A DNA stretch of 43,195 nucleotides from a virus (Duplodnaviria > Caudoviricetes): the IMG/VR virus record IMGVR_UViG_3300037756_000030, positions 1 to 43,195 of that record, one strand, 5' to 3'. The position numbers and the translations under genes are program-made. Under the pieces are notes generated by a model. The model made no database searches. It saw nothing but the letters and a program-made list of their open reading frames with translations, and was not told the origin of the DNA. Of the stretch, positions 2,134 to 9,112 are shown piece after piece. Positions within the stretch are counted from its first letter, which is position 1; the number at the start of each line of letters is the position of its first letter.

Positions 2134-2767
2134 CGTGAGTGAGTATTTCATCAAACCTATGATGAGACATTTCAACCTGCCGAAGGGTGCGGCTGACGAT
2201 CCTGAAGGATGGTTGCGGGACTACGAGGAAAGCCTCGGAAGCTTTGGTGACGACGTGCTGAGACTTGCGGCGAAAATCACCCGTGAGAGACCGGCGGCAA
2301 CCAGGACGTTTCCGATAATCGACGACTGCAATGCAGCGTGCAAGCAGGCGTTTGACGAGATTCACTACAGCCACTTGCGCGGCGATCGTCCGAACAACCG
2401 CAACGATGATCAGGCATTCTACGACAAATACCCCGAGTGGAGCGAACTCCGTCGGCAGCAAGCCTATTCGCTGATGCGCGGCGAGATGGGCATGGAAGCG
2501 GCAGAGGATCTGTGGGTGTGTGCGCTTTTCGACTTCTGCCGTGTCAATCGAAGGTTGCCGGACAGATACGAGAAAGAAAACGTTGTAAAAGTTGGTGCAA
2601 AAACCTTGGATGTTATTGGACTTTCTGGGGCGGACGCCAGTATACTTAAAAGTATGACGAAATTGAGCAGCCAGTTTCTGAGAGATTTCTTCAGGCGTCA
2701 TGATGCGATATGCAAGAAAATCGGGGCAGAACAGCATTTGCTTATGGCGAAGACAAACTTGGGATGA
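2126..2767 (+). CDS. hypothetical protein, putative replication accessory/helicase loader
   Basis: Overlaps the initiator gene; position and a TFP.I motif like lambda P/G39P-type loaders (inference). Confidence 0.5.
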   Translation: MGDVSEYFIKPMMRHFNLPKGAADDPEGWLRDYEESLGSFGDDVLRLAAKITRERPAATRTFPIIDDCNAACKQAFDEIHYSHLRGDRPNNRNDDQAFYDKYPEWSELRRQQAYSLMRGEMGMEAAEDLWVCALFDFCRVNRRLPDRYEKENVVKVGAKTLDVIGLSGADASILKSMTKLSSQFLRDFFRRHDAICKKIGAEQHLLMAKTNLG

Positions 2768-2773
2768 AGCCGC

Positions 2774-2938
2774 ATGACCCCTAGCTACCAAGAAAACATC
2801 CAGCCCCTGACGCCTGGCGAGGAGAAAATCCTTTGCCGGATCATGGGGGCGATCCACGCGGCAATGGAGCGGAAACACGGCCCCACCTTGATCAACAGGC
2901 ACAGGGCGCGGATGCGGGAAGAAGGGAAAATCAGATGA
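2774..2938 (+). CDS. small hypothetical protein (54 aa, below ORF-track cutoff)
   Basis: MTPSYQENIQPLTPGEEKILCRIMGAIHAAMERKHG...; ATGA overlap with the next gene. Confidence 0.55.
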   Translation: MTPSYQENIQPLTPGEEKILCRIMGAIHAAMERKHGPTLINRHRARMREEGKIR

Positions 2939-3153
2939 GCAATTTTGACATCACGATAGACTGGCGTAAGCCATCACCGTCAACAATCGGGATGACCAAG
3001 CGGCCGGCAACTTTTGCAACATCCCGGCTTTACGACCTTATCGACGGAATGATCAACCAGGCGAACAGTCACGGCGAGGCGGAAGTCACGATCCGTTTGG
3101 CACTCAACCCTGAAACTGGCACTCAAACAGACAATTCTGGCACTGAAACATAG
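2935..3153 (+). CDS. hypothetical protein
   Basis: ATG at 2935 coupled to the upstream stop. Confidence 0.55.
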   Translation: MSNFDITIDWRKPSPSTIGMTKRPATFATSRLYDLIDGMINQANSHGEAEVTIRLALNPETGTQTDNSGTET

Positions 3154-3170
3154 TTTTTGGCACTGAAAAA
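3096..3170. repeat. four direct repeats TGGCACT(C/G)AA spaced 19-21 bp, directly upstream of tnpB
   Basis: Copies start at 3098, 3117, 3138 and 3158. Confidence 0.92.
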
Positions 3171-3173
3171 ACG

Positions 3174-4256
3174 ATGCAGGTTCTAACGTACAAATTCCGT
3201 CTTCGCGACAAGCATGCCGCCGAACTCAATCGGCAGGCGCGGGCGGTTTCGTATGTCTGGAACTATTGTAATGAGACGCAGCAGAAAGCTGTGCTGTCTG
3301 GACGCAAGTGGCTGACGTGGGTGGACCTCAAAAAGCTTACCGCCAGCACGTCGAAGCTGCTTAATCTGCATTCCCATACGATCCAGCAGGTTTGTATCCA
3401 GTACGACCGTTCCCGTTCCGGGAAGCGCAAGCCGTGGCTGCGATGGCGCGGTCGCAAGTCATTGGGCTGGGTGCCCTTCTGCACAGGTCATGTAAGTTTC
3501 GATGGTGAGACGTTCAAATTCCGTGGCATCAGATACGAAACGATGCATCTGCGCGACCTGCCGGTCGGCGTGAAGATCGCTGCAGGATCGTTCAATCAGG
3601 ACAGCAAGGGCCGCTGGTACATCAATGTCCCGGTCGAAGTGGCCACCGCAGATCACGCGCCACTCACCCGGGTCGGCATCGATCTCGGCCTGAAAGATCT
3701 CGCCACGCTGAGCGACGGCCGCAAGATCGAAACACCGCGCTTCTACCGCAAATCCGAGGCAGCGCTCGCAACCGCGCAGCGCGCCCGCAAGTCGAAGCGC
3801 GTTCGCTACATCCACGCGAAGATCGCGAACCGCCGCAAAGATTTCATGCACAAGCTGAGCGCTAGGCTCAGCAAGGAATACGGGCTGATCGTCATCGGTG
3901 ATGTAAGCCCGTCGAAACTGGCTCAGACCAGGATGGCGAAGAGTGTGCTCGACGCCGGCTGGTCGGATCTCAGGGGTAAGCTGGCGTACAAGTCCATTAG
4001 GAATGGCGGCAGCACCCTTGAGGTTTCCGAGCGCATGACTACCCGAACTTGCTCTGCTTGCGGATCAATCCCGGAGCGGTGGCCGAAAGGTATCGCAAGT
4101 CTCGGAATCAGGGAGTGGACGTGTGCCTGTGGTGCATCTCACGATCGCGACGTGAATGCTGCGCGTAACATTCTCCGTCTCGGGCTGGAGACGCTTGTTG
4201 AAGGAACCCCGTATTGCGTAACGGGAGCAGCCAATGCCAAAAGCGAGGACGCATGA
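3174..4256 (+). CDS. tnpB: RNA-guided endonuclease TnpB (IS200/IS605 superfamily), rearranged RuvC-II type, no tnpA
   Basis: YKFRL N-terminus, VWNY, RuvC-I GIDLGLK, NRRKDFMHKLS, Zn finger CSACG...WTCACG, RuvC-III HDRDVNAARNI; canonical RuvC-II E is G (VIGDV), alternative E in VSERMTT. Confidence 0.95.
   Translation: MQVLTYKFRLRDKHAAELNRQARAVSYVWNYCNETQQKAVLSGRKWLTWVDLKKLTASTSKLLNLHSHTIQQVCIQYDRSRSGKRKPWLRWRGRKSLGWVPFCTGHVSFDGETFKFRGIRYETMHLRDLPVGVKIAAGSFNQDSKGRWYINVPVEVATADHAPLTRVGIDLGLKDLATLSDGRKIETPRFYRKSEAALATAQRARKSKRVRYIHAKIANRRKDFMHKLSARLSKEYGLIVIGDVSPSKLAQTRMAKSVLDAGWSDLRGKLAYKSIRNGGSTLEVSERMTTRTCSACGSIPERWPKGIASLGIREWTCACGASHDRDVNAARNILRLGLETLVEGTPYCVTGAANAKSEDA
4100..4252 (+). ncRNA. 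putative TnpB omegaRNA (scaffold overlapping tnpB 3' end; guide from ~4235); 5' boundary approximate
   Basis: GGAACCCCGT-loop-ACGGG-AGCAGCCAA (4203-4234) resembles the IS605-type right-end hairpin plus terminal tetranucleotide; omegaRNAs are known to overlap tnpB 3' ends. Confidence 0.55.
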
Positions 4257-6043
4257 GCAATCAGGAATTTTTCGAGAAAGTCGGAACGTCTGCACCGCGA
4301 TATGATGGTGGTCGCCAAGGCGTCGAAATGTCTGCACAGTCACAGCCGTGCCCGCCAGACGAACCGCACCGTGGGCCTTCCCCGACCACGGGCGCAAAGC
4401 GCTGGGCGGCGAACCATGATACGTTCTGGGGTGCGACGCAAACCTATGATCAGCTTCCCGCCGGTCTCTACCGTTGCGGCGAAGCGCCGAACGTCGGACC
4501 AACTCTGCACCGCATCCAGGTTGAAACAGATAATCTGCTCACGCTTCCGGATGACGACAGCACCGAAATCATAGCAGAATTCAAGCGGTTTTGGGAAGTG
4601 GAAGACGAGTTCCGCAAGCGCGGTTTTCTGATGAAGCGCGGTTTTCTGCTATGGGGACCGCCCGGCTCCGGCAAGACATCGACGATCCAACTGCTGATCA
4701 AGGAGCTGATTGAGCACAATAACGGAATTGTCCTGCTTGTCGAGCACCCGCATCTGGCGGCGGTGTGCCTGCAAATGGTCCGGCAAATCGAGCCGAAACG
4801 CCCGATCATCGCCGTGATGGAGGACGTTGACGCGCTCATTGAGCGGTTCGGAGAAAACCAGTATCTCGCATTGCTGGACGGCGAAGCGCAAGTCGATAAC
4901 ATTACATTCGTTGCATGTCCCGCGCCAGAAACACTCATTCTGAAAGCAGACCTAACATGGGTGAGAGCGGATACACTAGTCGAAGGTGATGAAATCATCG
5001 GTTTCGATGATGACATTCCAAACCGTAAGTACCGCACGGCAAAAGTGGTGTCCTGTCCGATTGTTGAATGCCCGAAGCGTTACAAGGTCACCTGCGACGA
5101 TGGTACGGTAGTGGTTGTCAGCGAGAATCATCCGTTTCTGATCAGACTCGGGAACCGTCCCTTTGAATGGAGAAAAGTTCAAGATCTAAACGTTGGCAAC
5201 CGGATCACGACCATAGGCCACCCTTGGTCCACCGATGAAACGCGAGAGGGCGGGTATCTTGCGGGTCAGTTTGATGGCGAAGGTCATATAGGGATTTCCT
5301 ACAATTCTGCCACGAAAAGTCGTGGATTCCATGTTGGCTGGGTTCAGGCCAGCGGAGAAATCGTCGAACGTGTCCAGTGTCTGATTGAGGAGAAGGGGTT
5401 CTCGGTCTCCCGTTATGAGAGAGAACCTACCGGAGCCTCTGAAGATGGAACCCCACACAAGCATCAGACGAGCTTGCGCGTAGGTGGCGGCAAGTGGGAA
5501 ACGCTTAGGTTTATAGGATCAATTCGTCCGTACAGGCTGCTAGCTAATCCGAAGTTAAGGCAGGGATGGGAGGATTGCAGGCTATGTTGCAATGTCACCG
5601 AGGTTGTGTCTCTCGAAGAGATTGGACGCGGCCCCGTGGTTGCATTGGAAACAACTACAGGAACCTTTATCGGTGAGGGTCTTCTGCAGCACAATTCGAC
5701 CAACTACCCGGAGCGGCTGGACAAGCGCTTCGTTGACCGGCCGTCCCGCTTCGACACCGTGCGCTATATCGGCATGCCTTCAGCGGAGGCGCGCGAAGTC
5801 TACCTGAAGACGAAGGAACCGAGCCTTGAAGGCGGCGAGCTCGCCGAATGGGTCAAGGCTAGCGAGGGCTTCTCCGTCGCTCACCTGAAGGAAATGATCA
5901 TCGCGGTCAAGTGCTTCGGGCAAACGCTTTCCGAGGTTGCCGAGCGCCTGGAAGCCATGCACAGCCGGAGGCCAACGAGCGCTGATGCGCCAGACCGGGC
6001 GACTGTGGGATTTGCGGCGCAGCTTGGACGCAGGATCGCATAA
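4253..6043 (+). CDS. AAA+ ATPase containing an intein
   Basis: Walker A GPPGSGKT, Walker B VMEDVD, sensor-1/SRH STNYPERLD...DRPSRFD; ATG at 4253 overlaps the tnpB stop. Confidence 0.9.
   Translation: MSNQEFFEKVGTSAPRYDGGRQGVEMSAQSQPCPPDEPHRGPSPTTGAKRWAANHDTFWGATQTYDQLPAGLYRCGEAPNVGPTLHRIQVETDNLLTLPDDDSTEIIAEFKRFWEVEDEFRKRGFLMKRGFLLWGPPGSGKTSTIQLLIKELIEHNNGIVLLVEHPHLAAVCLQMVRQIEPKRPIIAVMEDVDALIERFGENQYLALLDGEAQVDNITFVACPAPETLILKADLTWVRADTLVEGDEIIGFDDDIPNRKYRTAKVVSCPIVECPKRYKVTCDDGTVVVVSENHPFLIRLGNRPFEWRKVQDLNVGNRITTIGHPWSTDETREGGYLAGQFDGEGHIGISYNSATKSRGFHVGWVQASGEIVERVQCLIEEKGFSVSRYEREPTGASEDGTPHKHQTSLRVGGGKWETLRFIGSIRPYRLLANPKLRQGWEDCRLCCNVTEVVSLEEIGRGPVVALETTTGTFIGEGLLQHNSTNYPERLDKRFVDRPSRFDTVRYIGMPSAEAREVYLKTKEPSLEGGELAEWVKASEGFSVAHLKEMIIAVKCFGQTLSEVAERLEAMHSRRPTSADAPDRATVGFAAQLGRRIA
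4916..5695 (+). mobile_element. intein (260 aa) with LAGLIDADG-type motif
   Basis: Starts CPAPETLIL, block B VSENHPF, YLAGQFDGEGHI, ends GLLQHN followed by Ser +1; removal restores TFVA-STNYPERLD. Confidence 0.92.
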
Positions 6044-6095
6044 CTTGCGCATAGAGCGCCAGATAGTTGCGCATTGCGCATAGGGAAAATGGAAC

Positions 6096-6554
6096 ATGAC
6101 TTGTATCGCATTTGACGGACGTTTCGTGGCATCGGACATGCTTTGCAAATTTGGAGGCTACCGGGGACCGCTGCCGGTTGTGAAAATACGCGAGCATAAC
6201 GGCATCGTCTACGGCCTGACAGGCTATCCCGCGTGGTTCGATGCGTGGATCGACTGGCACCAGAAAGGCGCTGACCCGAACAACACGCCAAAGTGCACAT
6301 TTGCTGGTGACAATACAGGTAATTTCCTTGTTTTTCAAGAAGGTAAGGCGTTTGTGTGCTATTATCAGCTACCTTATTTGCAAGAAGCCGGAGCGCCTGA
6401 CGCTTGGGGCAGCGGAGCGGAATTCGCCATCGGAGCGATGAAAGCCGGGGCGAGCGCAAGGCAAGCAGTCGAGATCACCATCGAATGCAATCCCGACTGC
6501 GGCGGCCCTGTTCAGGTCATAGACCTGCAAAGCCTGAAAGCGAAGGCAGCATGA
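6096..6554 (+). CDS. Ntn-hydrolase, HslV/proteasome beta-subunit-like peptidase
   Basis: N-terminal M-T-CIAFDG...ASD, VKI, GSG.EFAIGAM..GAS..QAVE..I...P.CGGPV pattern. Confidence 0.75.
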   Translation: MTCIAFDGRFVASDMLCKFGGYRGPLPVVKIREHNGIVYGLTGYPAWFDAWIDWHQKGADPNNTPKCTFAGDNTGNFLVFQEGKAFVCYYQLPYLQEAGAPDAWGSGAEFAIGAMKAGASARQAVEITIECNPDCGGPVQVIDLQSLKAKAA

Positions 6555-6868
6555 GCACATCTGAACAAAAAGCCAGAGACATCATGGACGAGGCGTGTCT
6601 GCCTCAGAGCTTTCACGACAACGGCGTTTATTCTGCCTGCGTCTCCGCCATCGCTAAAGCGATAGACGATGAACGGGAGGCATGCATTCAAATCGCTGTC
6701 GCCGTTCAAGACGAGTGCTCCGACGAAATGAACCGCATGTTTGCTGAGAACAAGCCCGGTGCGGCGGAGGTTCATAGATGTCGCTTGGAAGGTGCCGCGC
6801 GCGTGGTTCAGAAGCTAGACGCCGCCGCGATAAGGAACAACGAGATCGATCTGGCTGAGAAGGAATAA
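6551..6868 (+). CDS. hypothetical protein
   Basis: ATGA coupling at 6551; EREAC..IA phage motif. Confidence 0.6.
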   Translation: MSTSEQKARDIMDEACLPQSFHDNGVYSACVSAIAKAIDDEREACIQIAVAVQDECSDEMNRMFAENKPGAAEVHRCRLEGAARVVQKLDAAAIRNNEIDLAEKE

Positions 6869-7158: not shown

Positions 7159-7383
7159 ATGAGCGCGCTGGCTACCGAATGCTACGACTGCGGCTTACCT
7201 TACGCAAGCGCCCGTTTCGAAGATTTGCTGCTTGCCGACGACATATGGAAAGAGATTTCTCCGGATGAAAACGGCAACGGCTTGCTATGCCCGAACTGCA
7301 TAATTGGTCGATTGAATATTTCAGGACTTCACGATCCGACGGCGCGATTTGTGAGCGGTCCACTAGCGGGGAAATCTGAATGA
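7159..7383 (+). CDS. small Zn-finger-like protein
   Basis: CYDC...LLCPNC. Confidence 0.6.
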   Translation: MSALATECYDCGLPYASARFEDLLLADDIWKEISPDENGNGLLCPNCIIGRLNISGLHDPTARFVSGPLAGKSE

Positions 7384-8330
7384 GCAAACGCACGACCGCA
7401 AAGCAGAAGATCGAGGCGATTGAGGGTGTACACCACGCATGGTGCAATCAAGCTGCTCAACCCCGCGAGGGCTGCAAGCAGTGCTCGTTCCTCTACAGCA
7501 CCTATCCGCTCCGCTACGACGAGACGCCGGACCAGGCGATGGAGCGCTATTTTCCGAAGGCCCAGAATATCCCGCCGAAGGAACCGGAGCCGGGCCTGGT
7601 GATGGTCAAGCGCGGCAGGTCGGTCATCGAAGCCAACGAGCAGATGGAAGAGGCAATCCAGAAGCTCCAATACACGCGGCAGGAAATGGAGGAATTCTTG
7701 CGCGAAGAGAGCGAGACTTTCCGCCGCGTCGTCGTGCGTCGTGGTCACGAGGTCGAGCGGATCGAAGAAGTCAGAACGCGCAAGAGCAAGTACGAACGCC
7801 GCCGGACCGACTACGCCATCGTGCGGACGGAAGAAGGCCAGCGCGAAATCAAGCGGGTCAGGACGACCGCGAGCAAGCTGGAAAAGGATGGACGGCTAAC
7901 TCGCGAGATGATGAACTATGTCCAGATTTTCGCGCGCATCGTGGCGGAAGGCATGGGCATGGCGACCGAAGACGGGCACGACAGCACCAACAAGCTTACC
8001 GCCTCGTATGACGGCTTCTACATGGCTGAATTCCGCTCGCGGACGCTCTCTGATCGCCAGATTGACGGGACATGGCTGCACCAGGAAATGCGCAAGCGCA
8101 TTCCAAGGGAATTCGTCCCGCTATTTGAGCAAGTCCTGAACGAAGAAGTCTCCGGCTATAGCCCTCTCGCCAGAACTCTGTCAGAATTGGGTGAGAAGCT
8201 CGGATACAAGCACAAGCAGTCCAGCGCCAGCGGCGGCACGCAAGTCTATTTCATCGCAGCGCTGATCGCTCATTTCTTGCAGGAAAACGGGATTTATACG
8301 CTAAAACCGCGACAAAGTGACGCAGCTTAA
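7380..8330 (+). CDS. hypothetical protein, possible late-gene regulator
   Basis: Last gene of the early operon; C-terminal HTH-like TLSELGEKLGY; function inferred from position. Confidence 0.45.
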   Translation: MSKRTTAKQKIEAIEGVHHAWCNQAAQPREGCKQCSFLYSTYPLRYDETPDQAMERYFPKAQNIPPKEPEPGLVMVKRGRSVIEANEQMEEAIQKLQYTRQEMEEFLREESETFRRVVVRRGHEVERIEEVRTRKSKYERRRTDYAIVRTEEGQREIKRVRTTASKLEKDGRLTREMMNYVQIFARIVAEGMGMATEDGHDSTNKLTASYDGFYMAEFRSRTLSDRQIDGTWLHQEMRKRIPREFVPLFEQVLNEEVSGYSPLARTLSELGEKLGYKHKQSSASGGTQVYFIAALIAHFLQENGIYTLKPRQSDAA

Positions 8331-8425
8331 GCTATTTTCGCACGAAACGCTTGCTTTGGTGCACGAAAAGTGCCATTTCCTAGCCCCAAGGCGAACTGCG
8401 CCTACTTTACTTTTTGAGGCGCAGG

Positions 8426-9112
8426 ATGGCATTTTTAGACGATGATGTTGAGTTAGATTTTGGCGAAAAAATCATCAGCAATCGCCGCTTCGCAAAAGAG
8501 CTGGGCGTCTTAAACAGAAACGCCAAACCCCCGGCGGATCACCTAGTCCTCAAAGCTCAAGAGCATGGCGGCAAGTTTCTCCATATAATTTCTTCAGATC
8601 TGCATTTGAATTCGATCTTTGCTCGCTGCATTGCGTGCGGCAAGGCTCTTAAGGTAGTCAATTTCGATGCGGATCGAAATGCAGAAGGCTTAGCAACCCG
8701 CCGTAATTTTGTGTTGGAAGCCACATGCCGAGACTGTAAGCAGCGCGAACTGGAAACAGCGGTTGCTGATCATCCGGATTATCGCCCAGAGTTAGACGAG
8801 TATTGGCGAAAGCATTACGTTTCGCTGTGTGCGAACGCCAATACGAGAAGGATACTGGTCTCAATCACCAAAGACGAGATTCTGGAACGCTATTTATCGA
8901 ATGGCGGTAAGTGTGAGGTGACCGGCGTTTTGCTCAAACCTGAGAAGGGAAAGTCCAACAGGTTTGCGCCAAGCGTCGATCGAGTTGATAGTTCAGGAAG
9001 CTACGAAGCTGGAAATATCCAGATCGTAGCGAGGGCCGTCAACATGATGAAAGGCACTATGAGTACAGACGAGTTCTATGAGTGGTGCGATTTGGTCGCC
9101 AAGCGCGACTAA
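8426..9112 (+). CDS. HNH/His-Me finger endonuclease with Zn-ribbon
   Basis: CIAC, CRDC; CEVTG...SVDRVDSSGSYEAGNIQIVARAVNMMK. Confidence 0.75.
   Translation: MAFLDDDVELDFGEKIISNRRFAKELGVLNRNAKPPADHLVLKAQEHGGKFLHIISSDLHLNSIFARCIACGKALKVVNFDADRNAEGLATRRNFVLEATCRDCKQRELETAVADHPDYRPELDEYWRKHYVSLCANANTRRILVSITKDEILERYLSNGGKCEVTGVLLKPEKGKSNRFAPSVDRVDSSGSYEAGNIQIVARAVNMMKGTMSTDEFYEWCDLVAKRD

Follow-up and report, generated by a model that had tools for sequence, protein, structure and literature searches.

The Geobacillus ISGst elements are a described case of TnpB-omegaRNA homing (10.1101/2023.03.14.532601). According to the accessible part of that report, the guide is the sequence that flanks the right end of the element, the full target is the empty site, and cutting of the empty site is followed by restoration through recombination. 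The locus presented here has the same relation between guide and target, and the same cut-and-copy inheritance is predicted for it. Unlike ISGst, its tnpB is phage-borne, is not adjoined by tnpA, and has lost the end hairpins. Its target is a repeat in a linker of mosaic phages with different neighbouring genes, and its tnpB is translationally coupled to the next gene. A second related group consists of TnpB proteins with a rearranged RuvC domain (TnpB2, RIIr-5), exemplified by TvTnpB (PMC10530073, PMC10691335, accessible parts). They share with the protein studied here a glycine at the RuvC-II position and an alternative glutamate about 45 residues further on. TvTnpB is a tested, active member with the TAM NTGAC (PMC10530073), and it is accompanied by TnpA and both transposon ends, whereas the native pentamer of our locus is TTGAG or TTCAG; the likeness is drawn from residues and implies no clade placement.

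TldR proteins (Wiegand et al., 10.1101/2023.11.30.569447) are, in the available text of that work, derived from TnpB, in some cases encoded by phages, and able to bind a TAM followed by a seed of about 6 nt. They are nuclease-dead and aim at the promoter of another gene, and the prophage copy of fliC escapes self-targeting. In contrast, the active site of the TnpB at our locus is complete, and the sequence that its guide matches in full is the empty allele of other phages. The expression of tnpB is held down in some elements by Arc, which represses the IS605 tnpB promoter (10.64898/2026.09.24.754181, accessible part); in that case the repressor is a separate ribbon-helix-helix protein and not the guide. 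Arc was the sole regulator of tnpB found in our literature search, which covered titles and the openings of abstracts, with subscription papers mostly outside its scope. Within the same limits, the search returned no guide-directed self-repression by TnpB and no homing of a phage TnpB into a shared linker.

The tnpB gene and its predicted omegaRNA

The analysed DNA (the window) is a whole virus record of 43,195 bases that encodes terminase, portal, and capsid genes. The tnpB gene (3174..4256, plus strand, 360 amino acids) is located within a group of co-oriented small early genes, with two larger unassigned ORFs upstream and an AAA ATPase gene (4253..6043, plus strand) downstream, and its stop codon overlaps the ATPase start. 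No ribosome-binding motif was visible 5′ of the tnpB start. The preliminary description had named ATPase and peptidase genes downstream of tnpB; the ATPase is real and contains an intein, but the putative peptidase (6096-6554) gave no Pfam match. The intein (about 4910-5698) is missing from the ATPase relatives in sediment runs X2 and X3 and in contig L235. It bears a motif resembling what we take to be a LAGLIDADG homing endonuclease, so that two probable homing elements, tnpB and the intein, are likely to adjoin each other. Further downstream, the ORF at 8414-9112 gave no Pfam or NCBIfam match, and by eye its C-terminus resembles an endonuclease, presumably of the HNH type.

The product of tnpB was assigned to the TnpB family by NF040570 (225.6 bits against a cut-off of 100), PF01385, and PF07282, and it matched ISDra2 TnpB (8bf8). 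It is of the rearranged RuvC type with a zinc finger, and its AlphaFold model had a mean pLDDT of 88.7. Among GenBank phages, only relatives with less than 60% identity were found. The active-site residues are D170, G242, E286, and D326. G242 aligns to E278 of ISDra2 and replaces the RuvC-II glutamate, and the alternative glutamate E286 lies 44 residues further on. D170, E286, and D326 were invariant across 37 homologs, and the pair G242/E286 fits the active rearranged-RuvC TnpB2 type (PMC10530073). Judged by its sequence, the catalytic set is complete though rearranged, and the protein is not nuclease-dead. A reading of the absent RuvC-II glutamate as the mark of a nuclease-dead TldR was considered and ruled out by D170, E286, and D326, together with the activity of the rearranged type.

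The transposon ends of the element are degenerate. We found no left-end hairpin motif and no tnpA adjoining tnpB. The right end (4208..4234, plus strand) is shortened to a small hairpin at 4208-4225, lacks the canonical TnpA hairpin, and terminates in CCAA in place of TCAA/TCAC. These features set the element apart from mobile IS605/IS1341 transposons, and since the left-end motif is missing and the right end is shortened, its mobilisation by TnpA is unlikely.

The boundary between scaffold and guide had been placed at 4234/4235, and this position is upheld by three lines: the right-end motif, the pseudoknot, and the tnpB-less contigs together with a tnpB relative. Close homologs share a common right-end motif followed by unrelated sequence. 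In tnpB-less contigs, the match to the window resumes at 4235. The tnpB relative in run X2 (record 13) matches through 4234 and then continues with another guide. A predicted omegaRNA hairpin (4176..4193, plus strand) inside the coding end of tnpB covaries across homologs and is present in the minimum-energy fold. Its loop (4183-4187) is predicted to form a pseudoknot with 4228-4232, the five bases before the terminal dinucleotide. All 5/5 pairs are formed in the window and in 125 of the 130 hairpin-detected loci (147 loci used), in many covarying forms, compared with 93 of 650 mixed forms in the control; the count is somewhat favourable, as the motif filters partly constrain both strands. The 170-nt RNA region was no more stable than its shuffles (z = +1.24). 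Taken at the level of motif, covariation, and empty alleles, the predicted scaffold ends at the right end and the flank would serve as the guide.

The predicted guide (4235..4254, plus strand) consists of the right arm of an inverted repeat copy and the ribosome-binding linker of the next gene, and tnpB reads through its own right end and guide into this linker. The nearest relatives of the element, in contig L265 and in X2 record 13, have the same shortened right end with other guides; given these guides, an element that has lost the TnpA hairpin may still acquire a new target.

The upstream repeat array in related phages

As had been described, four exact TT(G/C)AG-TGCCA sites are present on the minus strand at 3098-3167, with the pentamer directly 5′ of a 5-8 nt match to the start of the guide. 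Repeat 1 (3098..3107) and repeat 2 (3117..3126) consist of TTGAG with seed matches of 7 and 5 nt, and repeat 3 (3138..3147) and repeat 4 (3158..3167) of TTCAG with seed matches of 5 and 8 nt. Repeat 4 ends 6 bases before the tnpB start. Repeats 1-3 form the final codons of a small ORF of 72 amino acids (2935..3153, plus strand), the start of which overlaps the stop of the preceding ORF. The four sites are the sole exact copies in the window, where 0.14 would be expected, and no full-length match to the guide was found elsewhere in the window, in agreement with the earlier inspection by eye. A chance match between array and guide was ruled out by this expectation, and the match is accounted for by the empty alleles.

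The array was present in 5/5 related phage records, none of which encodes a TnpB of this family. Completeness was 90-100% for four of these records and 12% for the remaining one, a fragment. A TnpB search gave no match in four of the records and only distant matches (38% and 27%) elsewhere in the fifth, G004; for these distant genes, no family right-end motif was seen by eye in the stretch inspected. A scan for the repeat pair returned 8 loci: four related phages, three simple tandem repeats, and one locus (L229) without similarity to the window. A scan for the guide pattern returned 27 loci, two of them with the array (one of these two is the L233 contig again); the remaining 25 seem to be unrelated. 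The tnpB gene was found in 0/27 guide-pattern matches and in 1/49 loci of the metagenome contig pattern scan, and apart from the window and the run from which it probably derives, no filled allele was seen. The upstream region of the nearest ATPase homolog (L235) differs and contains no array. The relatives examined have 2-3 direct copies, with repeats 1-3 represented in tnpB-less phages, and their similarity to the window extends no further than 3149. No allele other than the one with tnpB was seen to have a fourth direct copy, a feature that the explanation favoured below does not account for.

At the place of tnpB, several relatives have an extra inverted repeat that consists of TT(G/C)AG and 15-22 guide bases. 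This inverted copy closes the array in L233/L260, which represent one contig (TTCAG and 15 guide nt), and in L254 (TTGAG and 15 guide nt). In sediment run X2, the array is joined directly to 4235 via TTGAG and runs on into the same ATPase. The corresponding joints in runs X5 and X6 read TTCAG followed by 22 guide nt, with 1 and 0 differences, respectively, and the joint in run X4 reads ACGAG; the short sides of these sediment-run joints are 22-51 bases. The expected pentamer is therefore seen before the full target in the empty alleles as TTGAG or TTCAG, with ACGAG instead in X4. The inverted copy is absent from L228 and L231, and L231 retains only the distal part of the target. Near 3022-3045 of L231, the array is followed by this distal part with pentamer and seed gone, which has the appearance of an escape allele or a hairpin deletion.

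Comparison of these alleles shows that the phage repeat family is older than the insertion and that tnpB occupies its inverted member. The left half of the inverted member is the pentamer and its right half starts the guide, so that every sister copy presents a match to pentamer and seed without any regulatory selection. The preliminary description had taken the four sites for an RNA-guided operator array of this TnpB. The constant pentamer beside the seed, the spacing of roughly 20 bp, and the position directly upstream of tnpB are in line with an array that evolved for this role, but the same array with the same spacing stands in the phages that lack this TnpB. These carriers largely refute the idea that the repeats arose, or are kept, as an operator, and we consider it highly improbable. 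A tempting false case of TnpB autoregulation is thereby removed.

The array is one of several gene-boundary blocks of 25-65 bases that are common to otherwise mosaic related phages. The shared blocks are 83-100% identical and lie at 494-536, 990-1035, 2889-2942, 3096-3148, 4235-4258, 6037-6099, 6500-6554, 6635-6679, and 7378-7408. They are likely to be linkers for cassette exchange with overlapping stop and start codons. Unrelated ORFs in L228, L233, and L234 terminate in the same repeat-coded peptide, and the stop of the upstream ORF in L233 overlaps the ATPase start, just as tnpB does in the window. The array itself most likely acts as a recombination linker that would also bear a protein-binding site. 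The palindrome arms of the empty allele match a Desulfovibrio variant of CIRCE, the operator of HrcA, listed in the accessible part of PMC545781. However, CIRCE has 9-bp arms and a 9-bp spacer, while the spacer of the palindrome is 10 (G003, X2) or 11 (G005) and extra direct copies are present. With the wrong spacer, identity with CIRCE was rejected and the palindrome is a resemblance only. The palindrome lies at 3020-3048 of L233 and near 2479-2508 of L254. A second small repeat family is located at 6042-6083 of the window (TTGCGCAT at 6045 and 6067), and in L228 it stands directly 3′ of the first array.

Probable homing against empty alleles and the TAM

The explanation that we favour, and consider reasonably likely, is that tnpB inserted in the inverted repeat member encodes an RNA-guided homing nuclease directed against tnpB-less relatives, the four seed matches being sister repeats. 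An IS605-type element would have entered on the 3′ side of the pentamer, and its left end would later have been lost. We infer this history, because the left junction is not a clean junction between a TAM and a left end. In this way, tnpB would have turned into a cassette of the early operon whose translation is coupled to that of its phage neighbours. During co-infection, TnpB would cut the empty allele, and tnpB would be copied in by recombination or the competitor would be disabled. Cutting of the sites in the phage itself is not predicted, as their matches of 5-8 nt should be too short. The TnpB of ISDge10 bound a 10-nt match without cutting it (PMC13507860, accessible part), so the shorter sites of the window should be safe. 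Since the linker is common to phages with different neighbour genes, the range of targets would exceed true alleles.

The alternative that tnpB is an inert passenger depends on the TAM. According to this reading, the gene is a decayed IS remnant that is kept for translational coupling to the ATPase, and its TAM would be NTGAC, which is found neither in the array nor at the empty alleles. The left junctions of close canonical homologs are mostly TGAC-like. The pentamers at the empty alleles are TTGAG, TTCAG, or ACGAG, with no TGAC-type TAM beside any target copy, and if the enzyme still required NTGAC, it would be without a known target. Degenerate transposon ends, a filled allele seen once, and the lack of a visible ribosome-binding motif point in the same direction. 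On the other hand, the frame and the active site are intact, and the pseudoknot is compensated. In addition, residues 49 and 103 of TnpB differ from those of most homologs, which may reflect a shifted TAM; the alignments with ISDra2 reached only the C-terminal half. One homolog, L033, shares W49, has a residue other than Asn at position 103, and carries GTGAG before a 7-nt seed copy. This gives weak support to an NTGAG TAM, although the GTGAG could instead be left-end sequence. We consider an inert passenger rather improbable.

The feature is real, and its cause is mostly ordinary: probably a variant of TnpB homing with useful natural targets. The locus provides a natural test system, in which one element with its guide boundary is accompanied by several empty alleles with different TAMs. 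Should these alleles be cut by the enzyme, homing or interference between phages would be RNA-guided, free of transposase, and aimed at a linker of mosaic phages.

Possible self-binding and homologs with a CCA right end

Binding of TnpB to its own array as an incidental event is possible. A stronger form holds that autoregulation arose as a by-product or later adaptation, in which TnpB binds the upstream sites with TAM and seed, chiefly the fourth copy, and dampens the expression of its own gene or of the operon. In the accessible parts of the reports, a TAM and about 6 nt of seed suffice for TldR ChIP peaks (10.1101/2023.11.30.569447) and TnpB ChIP peaks need little seed (10.1101/2023.03.14.532601), but a ChIP signal does not equal repression. 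Of the four copies, the fourth matches the guide over the greatest length (8 nt), adjoins the start, and is seen only in the filled allele; the other three sites are older than tnpB. The reading also requires a TAM that is loose at a position fixed in NTGAC, and an NTGAG TAM would admit just the two distant sites (7 and 5 nt), without the fourth.

The orientation of the sites also speaks against a transcriptional effect. In the available text on TldR 5′-UTR assays, repression required that the TAM end be turned towards the polymerase (10.1101/2023.11.30.569447). All four sites of the window have the opposite orientation, which gave no roadblock in those assays, and no promoter-like site was found nearby; the roadblock suggested in the preliminary description is not supported. 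A promoter scan of 2700-4400, which may miss the host's own promoters, gave no sigma70-like promoter, and the terminator scan was also empty. A sigma54 promoter, judged by eye against the consensus, was dropped, as the spacing was wrong.

Sites of another arrangement were found in homologs. The homolog set comprised 345 sequences, 259 of them with a tnpB match. After removal of redundancy, 147 near-full-length loci in which the right end was recognised were used, and 26 others of near-full length were dropped because they had no right-end motif. The right-end class was assigned by the terminal four bases, because classifiers based on compact or canonical hairpins misassigned rows. A direct copy of the own seed (8-11 nt) within 200 nt upstream was present in 7/18 homologs with a CCA end, one of which (L275) has a doubtful end call, compared with 1/128 of the others; guide swapping gave an expectation of about 0.56 across all 146. 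Three of the seven copies follow ATGAC, one follows CCGAC, and three follow something else. The seed copies of these seven homologs vary with their guides; the array of the window, in contrast, is kept in tnpB-less phages, which comes close to the refuting condition named in the preliminary description. On the minus strand, 0/18 CCA-end homologs matched their own seed over at least 8 nt, and the inverted array of the window is an arrangement distinct from their direct copies.

The direct seed copies argue for autoregulation, but they fit a repair scar after one-sided homing equally well as a selected self-binding site. Taking both sides together, we regard autoregulation at our locus as unlikely. 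With their upstream seed copies, the homologs make self-repression by an active TnpB testable, and better so in direct orientation than in the window.

In a 49-row tree, from which L043 (broken frame) and L275 were excluded, 12 changes are required to explain the distribution of the CCA end, and well-supported branches force at least 8 of them. All CCA rows derive from virus or metagenome contigs. The repeated loss of the TnpA end in virus-borne TnpBs, with the pseudoknot kept, suggests that transposon genes have become phage genes in this manner more than once. A more far-reaching proposal, which we regard as doubtful, is that phages repeatedly domesticate TnpB as a transposase-independent RNA-guided weapon or homing element. 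In the present case it would be aimed at a gene-cassette linker common to mosaic phage lineages, so that one guide could cut many non-allelic relatives, with the TTCAG, ACGAG, and deleted variants as escape alleles, and through the seed-only 5′ sites the nuclease, though active, would keep its own expression in check.

The seed copies of the seven homologs (L030, L031, L018, L040, L286, L065, and L337) lie 7 to 137 bases before tnpB, with an overlap between the site and the probable start codon in L040 and L065. L040 also has a second right-end-like motif about 40 bases past its first right end, after the guide.
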